From Candidatus Enterousia sp. (lineage in GTDB: Bacteria > Pseudomonadota > Alphaproteobacteria > Rs-D84), in assembly GCA_045601765.1 (NCBI GenBank), contig JAZSAG010000016.1, positions 1 to 50,495 of the forward strand: 50,495 bases of DNA, in the 5' to 3' direction. The notes beneath the pieces are model-generated. The model made no database searches and was not told the DNA's origin. It saw only the letters and a program-made list of their open reading frames with translations. Both the position numbers and the translations under genes were made by a program. Below are positions 3,953-43,001 of the stretch, piece by piece; position 1 is the stretch's first letter, and every line of letters begins with the position of its first letter.

Positions 3953-5449
3953 TTACTCGGTTGTTGTGCTTTCGACCAATTTCCATCCCATAAACGTATA
4001 CCCTGGTTTAACTGGGTCTTCTGGTAATGTAACCGGCCCATCATAATAACACATATTTTGTGTTGACGCACCACCATTATCCGGATTCCAATCGATATTG
4101 ATTGTATTTGCGGTACATGCGTATGTGATATATGCGCCACCTGGGTATTCATAAAAGGTTTCTGGTATCGGAACTATACACGACTGTGCACCAGTATTAT
4201 ACATCATAATACACATAAGCATAGCTAACCAACCCGTGCCAGCCGCTTCAAACATTGTTTCTTCGGTAATTTTTTCTGTCCCAAATGTTGAAACGTGGTC
4301 GTATTCAGGGATATCTATACCCTGAATGCTTGTATACTTAGTTTCTACTATATAATATGTAGATTCATAATACGATGTTTCACCACTGTAACTTATGCCA
4401 CGAGAAGATACATATACATACCAATCACCATTTTTTGCATTTTGACGAAATTCCGATAAATTTGGCATTTGTTTTGCCGCCGTACTGCAATCAATAGCGG
4501 TTGGATCTGCCAGAGTTGCTCCAAAATAGTCTGGCCCCTTGCCAACATCTTTAAACTTATTAAAAGTATAACAATGTTCGATGCCATCAAAATCCTTGTC
4601 ATAAAAGTAACCGCCTTCTGCTATATATGCATTACCGGACTCTTCAAGTTGGTCTGCAATAAGGTTTAGCCATGGTTGTGCCGGCATTTTTGTTGATAAA
4701 TCGTCAGGGTGTTGTATTTTATCAATAGACGTTAATATCGTTTGATATTCTATTGAGTCTTCGGGCAGTGCTTCTGTCAACTCGTTCCAATTGTCACGAA
4801 TCATTATTGCATATTCTTTTGAACTTGACCGCATTTCTTCAAGCGTGTCTTTTGGCACAAATTCTATGTACGAACCAGATTCTATTCTTAGCATAAAATC
4901 AATATAGGCATCTGTAGCCTGCTCTTCTGTTAAATCTGGTGCCTTATGATAACCTGTATCGCATTGAAAATTTATAGAACATTCCGGTGCAACTGCAGTA
5001 CATGTTCCACCGTAATATAATTTGCCGTTGGCTGTCTCATTACCATGTATTACGTTTATTGCATGGTTTGGTATAGATTGTTGGATACAGTTTACAGAAC
5101 ACCCCATATAACATTCAGATTCTGCCGTCGCGGCGGCGTCTGATGTGTAATCAGTGGGGCATGCGGTTTTACTGTTATTTGCCTCGACCGTAAAGGTTCC
5201 GCCCGGGCAATATGAACCAACGGGGCATTCGGTGCAGTTCAGTGTCGTTTCATCCAGGTATTGCCCCGCCGCGCATTCATAACTGTTCAGTGACCATGTT
5301 GCAATTGTGTTCGCGGTTGCATTATTGTCAGACACACCCAGGACGTCCACGGTACATGTGCCCGCGCCACCTGTTATAAGTCCGTCTTCTGCAAACGCGC
5401 CCGTCATGGTCATTATCAGTGTACTGGATAAAAATAAAACTTTTTTCAT
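3953..5449 (-). CDS. Secreted Cys-rich protein with C-terminal Listeria-Bacteroides (Flg_new)-type repeat; paralogue 1
   Basis: Start moved to ATG 5449 (GGGGGGA RBS; MKKVLFLSSTLIMTMTGAFA signal peptide). The N-terminal ~190 aa and C-terminal ~45 aa (NIDWNPDNG...PVKPGYTFMGWKL) match the 35781-37097 product. CxxCPxGSYCPGG motif. Confidence 0.85.
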   Translation of the reverse strand: MKKVLFLSSTLIMTMTGAFAEDGLITGGAGTCTVDVLGVSDNNATANTIATWSLNSYECAAGQYLDETTLNCTECPVGSYCPGGTFTVEANNSKTACPTDYTSDAAATAESECYMGCSVNCIQQSIPNHAINVIHGNETANGKLYYGGTCTAVAPECSINFQCDTGYHKAPDLTEEQATDAYIDFMLRIESGSYIEFVPKDTLEEMRSSSKEYAIMIRDNWNELTEALPEDSIEYQTILTSIDKIQHPDDLSTKMPAQPWLNLIADQLEESGNAYIAEGGYFYDKDFDGIEHCYTFNKFKDVGKGPDYFGATLADPTAIDCSTAAKQMPNLSEFRQNAKNGDWYVYVSSRGISYSGETSYYESTYYIVETKYTSIQGIDIPEYDHVSTFGTEKITEETMFEAAGTGWLAMLMCIMMYNTGAQSCIVPIPETFYEYPGGAYITYACTANTINIDWNPDNGGASTQNMCYYDGPVTLPEDPVKPGYTFMGWKLVESTTTE

Positions 5450-5469
5450 GGATTCCCCCCAATTGTTGC

Positions 5470-35619: not shown

Positions 35620-35736
35620 CAAATCTCCTGACTTAGACGGTCAGGAGGGCTGCGAATATATTGAATAAGCACACAATACTTTGTGATTGTAGTCAACCTC
35701 CTGACCACTGTTTTAATCGGTGGTTTTGTTTTTTTG
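35620..35736 (+). promoter_or_regulatory. Structured 5' leader (hairpin + alternative pairing + intrinsic terminator) of paralogue 2
   Basis: ctcctgac (35625-32)/gtcaggag (35640-47) hairpin, then GGCTG. cctcctgac (35697-705) is complementary to the hairpin 3' arm and overlaps terminator gaccactg-ttttaat-cggtggtt + T-run (35703-35735). Confidence 0.55.
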
Positions 35737-35780
35737 CAAAACCCCGATACAGACAGAAAAAACAAGGGGAGAATGCACAC

Positions 35781-37097
35781 ATGAAAAAAGTTTTATTTTT
35801 ATCCAGTATGCTGATTATGACAGCTTTTAACGCATTTGCGGACGACGCAGCGCCAAACACAGACAAAAAAATTACGGGCGGTGCGGGTACATGTACGGCG
35901 GACGTCCTGGGCGTATCCGACAATAACGCAACGGCAAACACCATTGCAACATGGTCGTTGAACAGTTATGATTGCGCGGCGGGACAATATCTGGATGAAA
36001 CAACATTAGAATGCATCGAATGCCCAACCGGTTCGTATTGTCCGGGCGGCACGTTCACGGTCGAGGCAAATAACAGTAAAACCGCATGTCCCGCCGATTA
36101 TACATCAGACGCCGCCGCCACGGCAGAATCTGAATGTTACATGGGGTGCGAATTGGTGTGTACACAACAAACATGTCCCGAACATTCTGAAAACTGCACG
36201 CACGGCGTGTCTGTTATTAATGGCGCGCAATATTATGGGCAATCAACATGTGACGCATTACCAAGATTTTGTAGTATGGATTTCGCATGCAAAACAGGTT
36301 ATACAAAAGTATCAACAATAATGAATTATATCTTGAATGATATATATGCTAAAACATTTGATGAATCTGGTATAGATTCACCGGTGGTGCATTTTGATAC
36401 GTGCGATGCAACAATGGAAACATGCACCGCAATTTTACAGTGGCGAATGCCTGAATTTGGGGACACAATAATTGCAATAATGTTTGAATACCGCTTTAAT
36501 AATGATAAAAATATTATACAAAATAATAAAATTAAAGACTTGGATATTAACGGACGTGGCGAACCGATACAAATATCTGTATTATCATATGATACAAATA
36601 TTTCTATGGATAATAATTTTTCCGTTATCTATGCACGCCCATCTGCATTTGTATTATTGACCCAAAATCTGATGTCTGAATTAAGCATATTACAAACAGA
36701 ACTTGAAAAAGATTTTGCAGATGGTTTAATTACAGAAGAAGAAGCGACGGAAAAATTTTCTGAGTTTGAAGCCAGATTATTAAAACCTATGAATTTACCC
36801 TGGATGGCTTTGATTAATTCTGAAGAACCTATTAGTTATAATGATCCAGAGGGTTGGGCGGAATTTGCAGTACAAATGTTTCTATTGCTTACTATGCAAA
36901 CCCCATTTTTTGTTGATGCAGTATATGGTGATATATCATACGTAAGGTGCGACAAGAATATAATCAATATCAACTGGAATCCGGATAATGGGAAAGATAC
37001 GATACAAGATATGTGTTATTACGATGGTGCAATCAGAGTACCAGACGACCCAGTTAAACCAGGATACACGTTTATGGGTTGGAAATTGGCCGAGTAA
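35781..37097 (+). CDS. Secreted Cys-rich protein with C-terminal Listeria-Bacteroides (Flg_new)-type repeat; paralogue 2
   Basis: Start moved to ATG 35781 (AAGGGGA RBS; MKKVLFLSSMLIMTAFNAFA signal peptide). N-terminal ~190 aa and C-terminal NINWNPDNG...PVKPGYTFMGWKL are shared with 3953-5449; the centre is unrelated. Confidence 0.85.
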   Translation: MKKVLFLSSMLIMTAFNAFADDAAPNTDKKITGGAGTCTADVLGVSDNNATANTIATWSLNSYDCAAGQYLDETTLECIECPTGSYCPGGTFTVEANNSKTACPADYTSDAAATAESECYMGCELVCTQQTCPEHSENCTHGVSVINGAQYYGQSTCDALPRFCSMDFACKTGYTKVSTIMNYILNDIYAKTFDESGIDSPVVHFDTCDATMETCTAILQWRMPEFGDTIIAIMFEYRFNNDKNIIQNNKIKDLDINGRGEPIQISVLSYDTNISMDNNFSVIYARPSAFVLLTQNLMSELSILQTELEKDFADGLITEEEATEKFSEFEARLLKPMNLPWMALINSEEPISYNDPEGWAEFAVQMFLLLTMQTPFFVDAVYGDISYVRCDKNIININWNPDNGKDTIQDMCYYDGAIRVPDDPVKPGYTFMGWKLAE

Positions 37098-37719: not shown

Positions 37720-38061
37720 TTAATCAATCCAGCCTCGTTTTTGTGCCGCATCATGCAGAATATTCATTGCGCGTCTCCATTGGTCGGCGGCGCGATTTTC
37801 GGCCCAAATATGTTGATGTGGTGCGCGTCTTTTGTCACCAAATTGTTTCATTATCATTAACTGTTCATCGCTAAGTTGCCCCGATAAGTATAATTTTGTA
37901 ATCATTGTTTCCACGTCCAGTATTTCACATGGTCGCCGTGTTTGAACTGTGCGCATACGTGCAAAATCATTTCGTACGGCCTTGGAATATAAAAACCAAA
38001 ACCACATTTGTTCGGCTGATTGAAATTTTTCGACAGATACCATTGTCATAACAGAGTTCAT
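37720..38061 (-). CDS. Hypothetical protein (possible small regulator)
   Basis: 113-aa ORF. WFWFLYSKAV... and LYLSGQLSDEQLMIMKQFG are reminiscent of a sigma-r4/LuxR-type helix pair, but I cannot assign a family. Confidence 0.45.
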   Translation of the reverse strand: MNSVMTMVSVEKFQSAEQMWFWFLYSKAVRNDFARMRTVQTRRPCEILDVETMITKLYLSGQLSDEQLMIMKQFGDKRRAPHQHIWAENRAADQWRRAMNILHDAAQKRGWID

Positions 38062-38349: not shown

Positions 38350-40740
38350 TTACAGTATTGGCGGGAAACAATCTCCCCCAGATTCTGGACAACAGTTGAA
38401 TCCCATTTCGCCCATATCAGTATATATTTCACCCGCACAGCAACCATTTGCATCTGGCAGACTGCCATCTTCACAGGTTAAAACTGCGGCGGCTGGTTCT
38501 TGCGATGTTGATTCAGGTGCATCAAATGGATTTTGAATACTGCCATCATCATTATATGTCAGACCCAAAACCTGTTCATTATACGCCTGGTCACCCAGGA
38601 TTCCGAACGAACCACTGACGCTGTTATCGAACGATTGCGTTTGGTATTGGTTTTGGAATTGTTCTTGTTGGCTTTGGAACAAGGCATCTTGTTTTGCATT
38701 ATTCTTGGCCTGATAATTCAATGATTCGCAATAGAACAAAATGGTCCTGTAATCATATCCCTCGGTGGTGCCATCTACGGCAATGTTACTATTTGCTGTC
38801 CACAAACCTTTTGAATCCTTGGTACAATATTTTTGCATATCAAATGATCTGACCTGGCCGACCCATGAACCGTCATCTTTGCGTGTCACGCGTTCTTGTT
38901 CTGATTTCCATCCATCATAACGCGGCGCATTGCCATATCCCAACGCGCATTTTTTGCCATTACCATCACCGCATGACGCGATTAAATCAACAGGTGAATA
39001 TACCGTGATACGTGTGCCGGCGGCAATTGTAAACGGTGGAACGGTATTATCCATCATATCGACCAATAATTTCTGGGCAACCTGATTCCATGCAGTTATA
39101 ATTTCATTCTTTGCCAGTTCAGACGAACGTACTGTTCCACTTTGTACGACGGTATTATTATCCAAATCAATCTGATTGACGAACGCATCAGATACAGGCG
39201 CAATTAAATTTACCGCCGCAGGCACAATCGCAGTTAACATTGGCATAAAGAATTGTTCCAGATAATCTGAACTGCCATAACCGGGTATCCCAGAACGTCC
39301 CTGGGCGTCGCCTGAAAATGGTGCATTACCGCCATTAAAATTAAACTCTATACCATTTGGCAATATAAATTGATACCATCTTATATTCATGCGTCCGACC
39401 GTTGTATATGGCCCCGGCAATTCACCGGTGACATATCCCATCAACAATGTTCCGGTCGGTATTATAACATTACGGCCATTATCAGAATAAACATTTCTGT
39501 CCACTGTCGCACGCACAGGCAGAAAGCTGTTGGCTAATGCCTCGGGGTCTGCGCGAACATCAGACACAATTGTCGCAGGAATTGGTTTATATTGGCGCAA
39601 AACAAATTGTCTGTCATATTGCACAGATGATATCACAGAATCACCCGAAGATGTGTAATCGATATCCTCTTGTGGTTTTTGACGCAATACCAGTCGTTCT
39701 ACACCACCACTATCTTCTGGTATATCAGATTGTGTTGCGCGGTTTACTGTTTTTATCGCCGGTGTATTTGACAATTCTGGCATAATCCCAGACAGCACCG
39801 CACTGAACCCAATATGTTCTGCATCTGTACCGATTTTTTTGCCTGGATTGTCTATATCAGTAATAATGCCGTTATCTGGGTTATATATACCGGTTGGGTT
39901 ATCGCATTGTGTATCAGAAAAAGGATGAAACTTATATGTTCCTGCCTGGGGCTTGATCCAGCCAATTTGACGACCATAATTATCATATCCCGCAAATGCA
40001 TAATCTGAACATGCCTCGGGCGGGCGGGTGTACACAGGTTCCACCGGCTGTGAAAAAGACGCGATTGGTGGCGCAATTGATTCAATTTCTGATATAAATT
40101 CGTCTTCATAATAATCTGGTTCTGGTTCATATTCAGAACTGTAATCTGTTTCGTAAACTGCGGACGTATCGTATTCTTCATATGAATCTGGTTTTGCAAC
40201 AGGCGTTGAAACAGGCGTTGGTTCCACAACCACCGGGGATGTCGCGCCCAATGTCACAACAATCTTGGATGTTTTTTGCATTGCGTCATCCGCATCTGCA
40301 TCGTGCCATACAACAGATACAATATTTTGTTCAACCTTGCCTGCGACCGTCGGTTCATATTTCATATTTATCGAACATGTTATTGTATTGTCAATCATAC
40401 CCATTTGGCTGCACGCACTGGCAACAGAAAAACCATTTCTTTCGTTGTCTGGGGTCACAGACAGTATTTTGACAGGCGCCGTTGCAGATAATTCAACCTT
40501 TTGTTGTTTTTTATCGCCAACCAATACATCTGCCCAATTTATAACATCTGGTGAAATATTTAGTTCTGCGGACACACCATGATGTTGCCCCAGCCCCGCC
40601 TGACCAGCATTTTTTTTACCAGAAATCAGCAACGTTAACAAGATTAATACAATAATAAACGCAGCCCCCAGCAGTAACCACTGAACATTTTTTGGTATAT
40701 TCTGACGAATTTCTGATAAACTTATTTTTAGTTTTCCCAT
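38350..40740 (-). CDS. virB10: VirB10/TrbI-family type IV secretion protein with extra N- and C-terminal modules
   Basis: 796 aa. TM anchor (WLLLGAAFIIVLILLTLLISG). TrbI core (IIPTGTLLMGYVTGELPGP...IRWYQFILPNGIEFNF...DAQGRSGIPGYGSSDYLEQFFMPML...AAGTRITVYSPVDL) plus additional domains (see findings). Confidence 0.85.
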   Translation of the reverse strand: MGKLKISLSEIRQNIPKNVQWLLLGAAFIIVLILLTLLISGKKNAGQAGLGQHHGVSAELNISPDVINWADVLVGDKKQQKVELSATAPVKILSVTPDNERNGFSVASACSQMGMIDNTITCSINMKYEPTVAGKVEQNIVSVVWHDADADDAMQKTSKIVVTLGATSPVVVEPTPVSTPVAKPDSYEEYDTSAVYETDYSSEYEPEPDYYEDEFISEIESIAPPIASFSQPVEPVYTRPPEACSDYAFAGYDNYGRQIGWIKPQAGTYKFHPFSDTQCDNPTGIYNPDNGIITDIDNPGKKIGTDAEHIGFSAVLSGIMPELSNTPAIKTVNRATQSDIPEDSGGVERLVLRQKPQEDIDYTSSGDSVISSVQYDRQFVLRQYKPIPATIVSDVRADPEALANSFLPVRATVDRNVYSDNGRNVIIPTGTLLMGYVTGELPGPYTTVGRMNIRWYQFILPNGIEFNFNGGNAPFSGDAQGRSGIPGYGSSDYLEQFFMPMLTAIVPAAVNLIAPVSDAFVNQIDLDNNTVVQSGTVRSSELAKNEIITAWNQVAQKLLVDMMDNTVPPFTIAAGTRITVYSPVDLIASCGDGNGKKCALGYGNAPRYDGWKSEQERVTRKDDGSWVGQVRSFDMQKYCTKDSKGLWTANSNIAVDGTTEGYDYRTILFYCESLNYQAKNNAKQDALFQSQQEQFQNQYQTQSFDNSVSGSFGILGDQAYNEQVLGLTYNDDGSIQNPFDAPESTSQEPAAAVLTCEDGSLPDANGCCAGEIYTDMGEMGFNCCPESGGDCFPPIL

Positions 40741-40768: not shown

Positions 40769-42298
40769 CTATTGCATTCTGACAACACTGCATGATTCTT
40801 GGCCACCGGTGTATTTAATCAGTTTATCACACAGTGTTTGCGCGGTGCTGATATCTGAAATTGGCCCGATACGCAGACGATATACCTTGGCCGCAGAAGA
40901 ACCCGCACCCAAATCGCCAACACCTTCGGCGTCTACTGCAAAGAATGCCATTTCTTCGTATGGTTTTAATATACCATTACCTTCGCCACCGCTGAATTTA
41001 GCCAACAATGCGGTCCAATGATCTTCCAGTGCCTTTACAGATGTATCTGATTTTAATTCAACCGCGACACCATTTTGATTGCTGGTAATCAGTGGAATAT
41101 TATTCTGTGGCAAATATGCACCTGCGGTATTACGCACAGTTGGTAACATGTTGACCACACTGCCTGATGATAACGCCGGTTGTGGTGCGTTATATGTGCC
41201 ATACCCCGCAGGCATATAATAACCTGCACCTGTTACCGGGTTAACTGTTGCAGTGTCTCCCATATACATTGGTGTTCCGGTATAATTCATGCCCATGCTC
41301 ATTGCGGCCATATCCTGGGTATATGCGATATTGTTCAAAGATTGCCCAGACAACATGCTTTGCGCAACATTGGCCTCGGCCAATGCCATAACAGATGCGG
41401 TATCTGCAATCAAGAACGGCTTTTCACGTCTTTTAATACAAACAATTCTTTGTCCACTGCGCAAAACCATATCACCCACAGCCTCGACAATCAATAAACG
41501 ACCATCTTCGCCATCTGTGCGGAACCCAACAGGGGATTCGCCACCTTCGACCAATAATGATACAACCGGTCTTTGGGTCATTGATATAACCTTGTCGCCA
41601 AAGTCGATATATGTAAAGATTCTGTCGCGCCATACACGTTCAGGGGCGATAACATAGTCATCTGGATTTGGTACAAATATATCTAAATCAAAACGAAATT
41701 CAGATGGATCAATTTTCATTGATTTTATCCAACCATAATCTTCGCCATCAACGCCCACGGTATTTGTTGATTTGGCTTGTTTGTTGAATATAGATTTTGC
41801 GCCACTGGATGTTGTTTTTGCACCGGCCATTGGCAATGCGCTATTGCCATCTAATAATACATCAACATGTGAATATGTAACCTCGCTGGCGTTTGATGGT
41901 TCGCTGCGCAGATAGAAAACGTATTTATTCCCAGATTGCCCCGTTACAATTAGATTTGTATCAGACCCCTGATTGCCGGACGCCGGTGATATAAACATAG
42001 TTCTGTCACCCTGGGTTGCGTCTATTTGAAATGCGCCGCTGTCACCAACAATTGCGTCTGCAATTTGTTCCCCGTTGGGCAGGTTAATCATTGTTACCAT
42101 ACCATTGCGTAATTTGACGGGCAGAACCGAACCTTCGGACCAAGACAGTTGTGCGTATCCTGGTTTAACACTGCCTGCGGCCATATTGGCACTTGGGTTA
42201 TCCCACGCCGCCTGTATTCCGGCGTACCCCGGTAACATAAACAACCCCGTCATGCAAATAACAGAAATATTCCATTTTAATATTTTTACAAGTGTCAT
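40769..42298 (-). CDS. virB9: VirB9/TrbG/CagX-family type IV secretion protein with C-terminal SPOR-like domain
   Basis: Start moved to ATG 42298 (signal peptide MTLVKILKWNISVICMTGLFMLPGYAG, AAGGA RBS). VirB9 N-domain (TNLIVTGQSGNKYVFYL) and C-domain (RIFTYIDFGDK...LRSGQRIVCIKR). About 200 aa extension ends in a SPOR-like fold. Confidence 0.85.
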   Translation of the reverse strand: MTLVKILKWNISVICMTGLFMLPGYAGIQAAWDNPSANMAAGSVKPGYAQLSWSEGSVLPVKLRNGMVTMINLPNGEQIADAIVGDSGAFQIDATQGDRTMFISPASGNQGSDTNLIVTGQSGNKYVFYLRSEPSNASEVTYSHVDVLLDGNSALPMAGAKTTSSGAKSIFNKQAKSTNTVGVDGEDYGWIKSMKIDPSEFRFDLDIFVPNPDDYVIAPERVWRDRIFTYIDFGDKVISMTQRPVVSLLVEGGESPVGFRTDGEDGRLLIVEAVGDMVLRSGQRIVCIKRREKPFLIADTASVMALAEANVAQSMLSGQSLNNIAYTQDMAAMSMGMNYTGTPMYMGDTATVNPVTGAGYYMPAGYGTYNAPQPALSSGSVVNMLPTVRNTAGAYLPQNNIPLITSNQNGVAVELKSDTSVKALEDHWTALLAKFSGGEGNGILKPYEEMAFFAVDAEGVGDLGAGSSAAKVYRLRIGPISDISTAQTLCDKLIKYTGGQESCSVVRMQ

Positions 42299-42323
42299 AC
42301 CAATCCTTCCCTTGTTTTTGTTT

Positions 42324-43001
42324 TTATTCCGCCAGCAATCCTGTATCCAGCGGATCACCATTGCCAGATGTTATTTCATATTCAGAAACACGTATCCCCA
42401 GTGGGTTGTCAATTTTACTTGCCCACTTAATGATATTCTCCTTTTGTGTTTCAATCTTTATCCGTATTGTATAATCTTTTTGTGCCACAGGTCCAGCAGA
42501 ATCTTCACAAAAATACCTAAATTTTACCTGATAAGTATCTTGGCCATATGCACTGGACAATAATAACGGTTCTGTATCAAAGTATACATCGCACTTTACA
42601 TCATAATTCGGTGCCCCGGTCATTATTTCATTAAACGCAAATGTGTTCGCGAATTTAGAATAAACGTTGTCCGTGGAAATAGTTCTGACAAACCCGTCAA
42701 GACTGTTCCATTTTTTATTCATCACCTTGGCATTATTAATAATTTCGTTGCGGTGTCTGACATATTCGCGTACCAAAGACTTTTTGTATATGTCCAAATT
42801 TTCACTTTCTGGCGGCATTTGTTCCAGTTTTACACTTTGGTCTGCGCGCATAGTTGTTGTCAAAAAGAATATTTGCGGTCTGTTCAGTGGGAACATTTTG
42901 TACAACGTAAACGCCAATACCCCCAGTACAACCAATGCGGTTGCCAACACAAATGTCATCAATCTTGACAGCAAAACAGGCGGTTTTAAAGGCTGTTGCA
43001 C
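42324..43001 (-). CDS. virB8: VirB8-family type IV secretion protein
   Basis: 225 aa, GTG start with GGGGAG RBS 6 nt upstream. N-terminal TM, then NTF2-like periplasmic domain (SLVREYVRHRNEI...YQVKFRYF...YTIRIKIE). Position directly upstream of virB9/virB10. Confidence 0.75.
   Translation of the reverse strand: MQQPLKPPVLLSRLMTFVLATALVVLGVLAFTLYKMFPLNRPQIFFLTTTMRADQSVKLEQMPPESENLDIYKKSLVREYVRHRNEIINNAKVMNKKWNSLDGFVRTISTDNVYSKFANTFAFNEIMTGAPNYDVKCDVYFDTEPLLLSSAYGQDTYQVKFRYFCEDSAGPVAQKDYTIRIKIETQKENIIKWASKIDNPLGIRVSEYEITSGNGDPLDTGLLAE

Follow-up and report, generated by a model that had tools for sequence, protein, structure and literature searches.

A VirB10 protein of Candidatus Enterousia with folded N-terminal modules and a cysteine-rich C-terminal tail

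The gene at positions 38350..40740 (-) of a 50,495-nucleotide contig of Candidatus Enterousia sp. (JAZSAG010000016.1 of assembly GCA_045601765.1; the whole contig is the window analysed here) encodes a genuine VirB10, a member of the TrbI family and the scaffold and channel subunit of a type IV secretion system (T4SS). Four additions set this protein of 796 amino acids apart from known VirB10, and one of them is an uncatalogued domain family. From the N-terminus, its parts are a transmembrane (TM) helix, an immunoglobulin (Ig)-like module, an acidic linker, a beta-rich module with two cysteines, a second linker, the beta-barrel with its antenna, and a tail of 210 residues. We favour, with confidence that is no better than evenly balanced, a reading in which this is the VirB10 of a lineage-fixed chromosomal T4SS and the tail serves as a periplasmic, disulfide-stabilised docking or bracing unit.

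Results

A divergent but genuine VirB10

The open reading frame (ORF) has an ATG start and 796 codons plus stop, and the N-terminus of its product aligns with all relatives from M1 onwards. Pfam TrbI (PF03743) matches residues 383-582 over positions 4-182 of its 188-position profile (E 1e-17; 65.1 bits against a cut-off of 35), and NCBIfam T4SS_VirB10 (NF038091) matches residues 376-586 (profile 6-189 of 197) with 58.9 bits, short of its 220-bit equivalog cut-off. When a profile of the family was compared with the sequences in the PDB, it matched CagY and ComB10, CagY being the best at E 3e-5. Foldseek, run with an AlphaFold2 model built on 62 relatives, returned ComB10, CagY, TrwE, the VirB10 of X. 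citri and TraF, with E 2e-8 to 1e-4 and a probability of 1.00. Because the hidden Markov models (HMMs), the profile matches and the fold matches all point to the same family, we take the protein to be a genuine VirB10; judged by its sequence scores, it is a divergent one and no equivalog of the Agrobacterium-type protein. An earlier reading of the same DNA, made from the sequence alone (the sequence-only reading), had placed the end of VirB10 homology at ...RITVYSPVDLIAS, and the TrbI and T4SS_VirB10 matches, which run to residues 582 and 586 respectively, bear this out.

The beta-barrel core delimited by the HMMs, Foldseek and AlphaFold2 (residues 376-586, 38983..39615 (-)) is modelled with moderate confidence only. 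Within it lie the two antenna helices, at residues 492-525 and 540-564. In the 62-sequence alignment that we used for conservation, the antenna together with its interhelix loop (residues 492-564, 39049-39267 (-)) reaches a mean identity of 92%, the highest in the protein. The antenna loop, which is expected to face outwards, thus sits within the best-conserved part. At the other end of the protein, a short cytoplasmic N-terminal tail (residues 1-16) precedes a helix in the AlphaFold2 model at residues 17-41 (residues 1-41 together, 40618..40740 (-)), a predicted TM segment that is hydrophobic and conserved (W21, L22 and L23 invariant, Q20 nearly so; mean top-residue frequency 0.83). VirB10 here is therefore predicted to be a bitopic inner-membrane protein, anchored by its N-terminal TM helix.

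A C-terminal tail confined to one family

Canonical VirB10 proteins end soon after the core, as the sequence-only reading had supposed: in 30 other alphaproteobacterial VirB10 the stretch that follows the TrbI match has a median length of ~10 residues and a maximum of 127, so the tail described here (residues 587-796, ~210 residues) lies outside the sampled length range. It contains 10 cysteines, C590, C598, C639, C671, C756, C767, C768, C783, C784 and C791, and all of them are invariant in the 62 relatives, which answers the question, raised earlier, of whether the pattern is conserved. C590 and C598 come directly after the barrel, C639 and C671 flank a variable insert, and the other six fall within the last 42 residues. 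The Cys-rich extension, Gln-rich stretch and terminal cysteine cluster that had been read from the letters are thus all present, the Gln-rich stretch as a Gln/Asn-rich helix at ~664-698.

The proximal part of the extension (residues 587-753, 38482..38982 (-)) comprises the C590/C598 hairpin, the C639/C671 region, the Gln/Asn-rich helix and variable stretches; its mean identity is 30-51%, falling to 30-42% in the variable middle of the tail. Conservation runs uninterrupted across the junction between core and tail, where P583, D585, L586 and C590 are invariant. The tail has no Pfam or NCBIfam match at E <= 1, no fold match in the PDB (best Foldseek E 2.4) and, in the AlphaFold2 model, nothing resembling a membrane-crossing segment.

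A search of 5.8 billion proteins gave 929 matches, counted as more than 900 full-length homologues; the best 120 span the entire query (100%), share 52-98% identity with it and measure 778-833 residues. With residues 583-796 alone as the query against 1.84 billion representatives (219 matches), the complete tail was found only in ~800-residue VirB10 of this family, or in fragments. Among contigs, with one genome per species, 293 loci encode a relative, and 80 of these were kept for comparison of ORF integrity and synteny. Nearly all 80 match residues 1-796, including a locus on a closed 958-kb chromosome assembled with metaFlye (L080), and the gene order nusG / virB8-virB9-virB10-orf113 / yidC is almost invariant among them.

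Of 271 genomes in the same family, which span 17 genera, 268 carry the tail; among 29 genomes from the five other families of the order Rs-D84, none does. The VirB10 proteins of these sister families, 626-760 residues long, have the TM helix, the Ig module, the two-Cys middle module and the core in common with the Enterousia protein, with both Cys pairs aligned; their tails consist of 15 residues (with one C-x8-C pair), of 21 residues, or of an unrelated acidic stretch of 122-135 residues. We therefore rejected the tail as an ancestral feature of the whole order. Because the sister families share the N-terminal modules and differ in their tails, the N-terminal additions are order-wide, and the Cys-rich tail is the invention of one family at a place where tails vary. 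The sequence-only reading had allowed that the extension might prove common and already annotated in close homologues. Common it is, at 268 of 271 genomes, but annotated it is not, Pfam, NCBIfam and the PDB being blank. Giant TrbI-containing ORFs of 1,280-2,838 residues occur in other Alphaproteobacteria with small genomes of 1.1-2.5 Mb (e.g. G324:C14, G499:C28, G339:C11 and G407:C3), so an oversized VirB10 alone is not unique to Rs-D84.

The terminal six-Cys module and its other carriers

The tail ends in a module with the pattern C-x10-CC-x14-CC-x6-C-FPPIL (residues 754-796, 38353..38481 (-)), delimited by conservation, the AlphaFold2 model and recurrence in other proteins. In VirB10 its mean identity is 85%, on a par with the core, and it is modelled as a beta-hairpin with a predicted local distance difference test (pLDDT) of ~78-81. 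That identity, the invariance of all ten tail cysteines and the near-universal presence of the tail in the family point to selection on the tail. It is polar, ends in FPPI[KLF] and has no hydrophobic helix. An HMM of the module matched 147 representatives, which we call carriers; only ~15 of these are VirB10 and ~130 clusters are not, and in 143 of the 147 the module lies no more than six residues from the C-terminus. The 148 copies outside VirB10 give the consensus C-x-DG-x2-PD-x2-GCC-x-GE-x-YTDMG-x2-GF-x-CCP-x2-GGDC-FPPI, in which five cysteines are 99% conserved and the first 87%.

The carriers fall into four classes, VirB10 being one. Proteins of 70-90 residues consist of a hydrophobic N-terminus and the module; those of 180-280 residues have a signal peptide, a helical domain with a Cys pair and between one and three copies of the module; in those of 680-750 residues, a cytoplasmic coiled-coil domain is followed by a single TM helix, a long acidic linker and the module. 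A simple hydropathy test found a hydrophobic segment, N-terminal or internal, in 97 of the 125 carriers that look complete, and in some the module begins only a few residues past an N-terminal one. Near-complete genomes of the genus hold four carriers and the present genome three, including VirB10. The other two here are a 189-residue protein with a signal peptide and a helical Cys-pair domain (contig C2:6008-6577 (+)), adjoining lolCD-like genes, and a 749-residue bitopic protein with a Tyr/acidic-rich linker ahead of the module (contig C26:1200-3449 (+)), adjoining a gcrA-like gene. Given these neighbours, an operon link between the carriers and the T4SS was rejected.

The module profile was not found in a sample of 298 other alphaproteobacterial genomes representing ~200 families. 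Neither the module nor its carriers have a Pfam or NCBIfam model at E <= 1, and a profile of 25 copies compared with PDB sequences returned none at E <= 10. Curated sorting and anchoring signals (PEP-CTERM, GlyGly-CTERM, LPXTG and the T9SS CTD) gave no match in the tail or the carriers at E <= 1. Granulin-type stacks (2JYE, 2JYU) were the only small-domain Foldseek entries for the tail and resemble the module in their CC pairs, CCP motif and predicted beta-hairpin, but the matches are non-significant (E 3.9 and 9.5) and the module has six cysteines, as against twelve in the granulin type. With the PDB-sequence profile also blank, a granulin identity was not adopted. By their recurrence and conservation, the last 42 residues are an autonomous, separable and uncatalogued domain family.

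Folded modules and linkers ahead of the barrel

The sequence-only reading had proposed that the ~110 residues after the TM anchor adopt an Ig fold of the ASH/HYDIN/PapD-like kind, and both AlphaFold2 and Foldseek agree. Residues 58-168 (40237..40569 (-)), with the Cys pair C110/C122, are modelled as a beta-sandwich at pLDDT 84-92, with the seven to eight strands of the MSP/PapD type. The closest folds are C. elegans WR4 (E 1.7e-5), the CEP192 ASH domain (2.6e-5) and a PapD-like domain of HYDIN (3.4e-4), with TM-scores of 0.59-0.69. The NCBIfam model 'choice-of-anchor D' (NF012200) matches residues 58-140 (E 6e-6) with 26.7 bits, below its cut-off of 45; Pfam ASH (PF15780) has no match in this protein at E <= 0.01, and two relatives hold a precomputed match to it. 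The Cys pair is retained across five families of the order. The likeness to ASH/MSP/PapD-like domains is one of fold: those domains belong to surface or ciliary proteins, and the one in Enterousia sits inside a T4SS scaffold, past a TM anchor.

The Pro/Glu/Tyr-rich linker noted from the letters is real, both in composition and in predicted disorder. Residues 169-239 (40024..40236 (-)) contain 24% Asp plus Glu, 15% Pro and 11% Tyr, and are mostly modelled with pLDDT <50 (segments 173-216, 218-220 and 222-237). Its length ranges from 56 to 92 residues in relatives; its richness in Tyr is limited to this genome and its nearest relatives, linkers of PEPEP type being found in others.

Residues 240-320 (39781..40023 (-)), delimited by AlphaFold2 and conservation, form a beta-rich module with two cysteines, C244 and C279, modelled with pLDDT 72-86 and with a mean identity of 69%. 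This is a fourth addition to VirB10, one missing from the sequence-only reading. It has no Pfam or NCBIfam match at E <= 1; it is found in the VirB10 of the Rs-D84 sister families, and a single-sequence query did not find it in a sample of 248 other Alphaproteobacteria genomes. A second disordered linker (residues 321-375, 39616..39780 (-); pLDDT <50 over 323-383), 55-74 residues long in relatives, leads into the barrel.

The operon and the rest of the secretion system

The genome to which the window belongs, as contig C16, is 977 kb long in 62 contigs and 77% complete. The first gene of the operon is virB8 (42324..43001 (-); PF04335, E 3e-10), followed by virB9 (40769..42361 (-); 530 residues, CagX domain PF03524, E 9e-24), both also identified by synteny; 28 nucleotides separate the virB9 stop from virB10. 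After its CagX domain, the C-terminus of VirB9 has a SPOR-like match (PF05036, E 0.003) that is below cut-off. Downstream of virB10 lies the small, syntenic gene orf113 (37720..38061 (-)). Because it takes this place in 75 of the 80 related loci, it is probably the fourth gene of the operon. Its cytoplasmic-looking product of 113 residues is Trp/Phe-rich with a basic C-terminus and has no signal peptide and no Pfam or NCBIfam match. Between yidC and orf113, a gene for a secreted Cys-rich protein of 478 residues is inserted at 35661-37097 (+). This protein, which has sub-threshold Ephrin_rec_like and Flg_new matches, was detected in only one of the 80 related loci, and it has a paralogue at C29:8-1333, adjoining virD4.

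Elsewhere in the genome, the T4SS genes are scattered as islets amid housekeeping genes. A virB3-like gene and virB4 lie at C6:3202-6531 (-), with a gene for a 207-residue signal-peptide protein that lacks a family match, and virD4 stands alone at C29:1688-3931 (-). A virB11 candidate is found on C30 around 5129-5461 (+), with a full-length alignment to TIGR02788 (E 6e-43) that falls below the equivalog cut-off. Thus, virB8 and virB9 adjoin virB10, and the T4SS ATPases (VirB4, VirD4 and the VirB11 candidate) are encoded in the same genome, which together with the constant synteny supports VirB10 as a component of a working machine.

A membrane-anchored oxidoreductase of the DsbA type, with a CPYC site, is also encoded (C57:1180-2004 (+)). 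The number of cysteines in VirB10 is even in each module (2 in the Ig module, 2 in the middle module, 2+2 in the proximal tail and 6 in the terminal module), and these even counts, together with the DsbA-type protein, fit disulfide-stabilised folds.

Discussion

Comparison with known VirB10 proteins

With the canonical VirB10/TrbI proteins of minimal T4SSs (pKM101 TraF, 3JQO; R388 TrwE, 7O3J and 8RT6; X. citri, 6GYB; ComB10, 2BHV) the Enterousia protein shares the bitopic plan with an N-terminal TM helix, the C-terminal beta-barrel with a two-helix antenna and a gene that directly follows virB8-virB9. Unlike them, it is about twice as long, it has two folded Cys-paired modules and acidic linkers where they have a proline-rich region, and it adds the 210-residue Cys-rich tail after the barrel; its similarity to the family models is weak. 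CagY of H. pylori (6ODI, 6X6S, 8CB2, 9VGF) is likewise an oversized VirB10 with lineage-specific additions in a host-associated bacterium. The additions in CagY, however, consist of large repeat regions that precede the VirB10 domain (PMC9371333); CagY lacks a C-terminal Cys-rich tail, and the periphery of its core is decorated by the separate proteins Cag3, CagT and CagM. The VirB10 proteins of the Rs-D84 sister families (L085-L088) have the TM helix, Ig module, middle module and core but no six-Cys module. In the literature on VirB10 C-terminal extensions or Cys-rich tails and on Enterousia, we found no description of this architecture or of the module.

Placement and possible role of the tail

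The sequence-only reading had suggested that a domain added after the outer-membrane-proximal end of VirB10 could be exposed at the cell surface. Our results do not support this, and the indirect evidence points to the periplasm. In the minimal systems whose structures are solved, VirB10 forms the lining at the centre of the O-layer, beneath the outer membrane, and the loop joining the antenna helices is the only part shown to be outside the cell (PMC9371333). Because the antenna lies upstream of the tail, this topology implies that the tail emerges at the periplasmic face of the barrel. The six-Cys module is likewise found at the end of proteins that are anchored in the inner membrane or exported by Sec, which places its working site in the periplasm. 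We therefore consider it quite probable that the tail is located there.

The way in which such a protein might work can be sketched as follows. The N-terminal modules and linkers would act as a periplasmic spacer and as decorations at the level of the I-layer, replacing the canonical proline-rich region. The tail would leave the barrel on its periplasmic side and remain below the outer membrane, its five Cys pairs presumably oxidised by the membrane-anchored DsbA-type protein of the genome. In a multimeric core, which is 14-fold in minimal systems, the tails might then build an additional periplasmic ring or skirt, which the six-Cys module would dock onto an envelope partner also used by the other module-bearing proteins, possibly an outer-membrane protein or lipoprotein, the cell wall or the six-Cys module itself. 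Together with the SPOR-type domain of VirB9, the tail would act as a brace for the core complex within the envelope, a task that elsewhere falls to separate peripheral subunits such as VirB7 with its N0 domain, or Cag3, CagT and CagM.

Several observations weigh against this proposal. In this 77%-complete genome, the Pfam models TrbL/VirB6 and TrbC/VirB2 gave no match; a search of 41 genomes of the genus found no DsbB, and VKOR was not found in the present one; 28 carriers have no hydrophobic segment by what is a crude hydropathy test. In two AlphaFold2 runs the confidence for residues 587-753 was low to moderate. The docking partner is hypothetical, the tail has been placed by inference, and a ring of 14 tails of 23 kDa each would be an extrapolation from minimal systems.

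Alternative explanations

A trivial explanation, also named by the sequence-only reading, would be that the long ORF is a fusion of virB10 with a downstream gene, produced by assembly or gene calling. The fragmentation of the metagenome-assembled genome (62 contigs, 77% complete) is the only thing to be said for it and no positive support was found; the uninterrupted full-length ORF in 80 independently assembled loci, the closed chromosome among them, the stable synteny of these loci and the continuous conservation over the core/tail junction leave it with virtually no probability. Surface exposure is another alternative: the tail might thread through to the outside and form a T4SS adhesin or a domain for target recognition, for it comes after the domain closest to the outer membrane, extracellular proteins often contain small disulfide-rich modules, and the middle of the tail is as variable as an exposed surface would be; a partner-dependent organism with a tiny genome plausibly needs cell contact (PMC12306168), and since a pilin gene was not detected, some other contact structure might be required. 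We nevertheless regard a surface tip as distinctly unlikely, because the barrel C-terminus is on the periplasmic side and the antenna loop is the only part known to be extracellular (PMC9371333), because the tail lacks a segment resembling one that crosses a membrane, because the module also ends inner-membrane-anchored proteins, sometimes with almost no spacer, and because at 85% conservation it is unlike typical exposed receptor-binding tips.

Two further alternatives concern what the module does. It could be a recruitment tag that binds another copy of itself or the core and so brings Sec-exported carriers to the T4SS, as accessory subunits or as periplasmic substrates of a two-step route, as in the Ptl system. 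Its place at the extreme C-terminus of nearly all carriers, the fixed and small set of four carriers, VirB10 included, in near-complete genomes, and the existence of carriers that are barely more than a signal peptide and the module would all suit such a tag. We think it distinctly unlikely, because the carrier genes of this genome adjoin housekeeping genes away from those of the T4SS, the inner-membrane-anchored ~700-residue class makes an improbable secretion substrate, and any interaction is hypothetical. Alternatively, since DsbB and VKOR were not found, the cysteines could bind metal instead of forming disulfides, with the paired CC motifs holding Zn, Cu or Fe and the tail serving as a structural or sensing element that depends on metal. 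Metal sites often contain vicinal Cys pairs, and the lineage, without a respiratory chain, inhabits the anoxic gut (PMC12306168). The encoded DsbA-type oxidoreductase with its CPYC site and the even number of cysteines in every module speak for disulfides, however, as does the fit of strictly conserved Gly, Pro and Glu residues near the cysteines, together with the predicted hairpin, to a small knotted fold; the sole fold resemblance, non-significant as it is, is to disulfide-bonded hairpin stacks of the granulin type (E 3.9). We consider a metal cluster unlikely, though a live alternative.

A bolder extension of the docking or bracing role that we favour is that the six-Cys module represents a novel docking domain of the envelope, restricted to this lineage, and would tie a small, fixed set of proteins to a common partner or to each other. 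This set would comprise VirB10, the ~700-residue inner-membrane-anchored protein, the ~200-residue secreted protein and the ~90-residue mini-protein, and the module-bearing proteins would serve the machine as physical accessories or as periplasmic clients. We regard this as unlikely, although, if true, it would represent a modular route to an expanded T4SS core that is unseen in studied systems.

Implications

VirB10 is the sole subunit that spans both membranes in every Gram-negative T4SS studied. The known enlargements of VirB10, in CagY and DotG, lie N-terminal to the barrel, and a conserved, folded, Cys-paired tail on its C-terminal side is therefore a different way of decorating the outer-membrane core. 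The six-Cys module marks a small set of envelope proteins and thereby provides a handle for finding what the machine touches. The bacteria of the order Rs-D84 live in the gut of farm animals with genomes of ~0.75-1.0 Mb; Candidatus Enterousia and its relatives are without respiration, standard nutrient transporters and flagella (PMC12306168). Even so, virtually all genomes of the lineage retain the T4SS, at one fixed place in the chromosome. Because it has been kept despite the tiny genome and the missing functions, the machine is probably central to the dependence of these uncultured gut bacteria on their partners.

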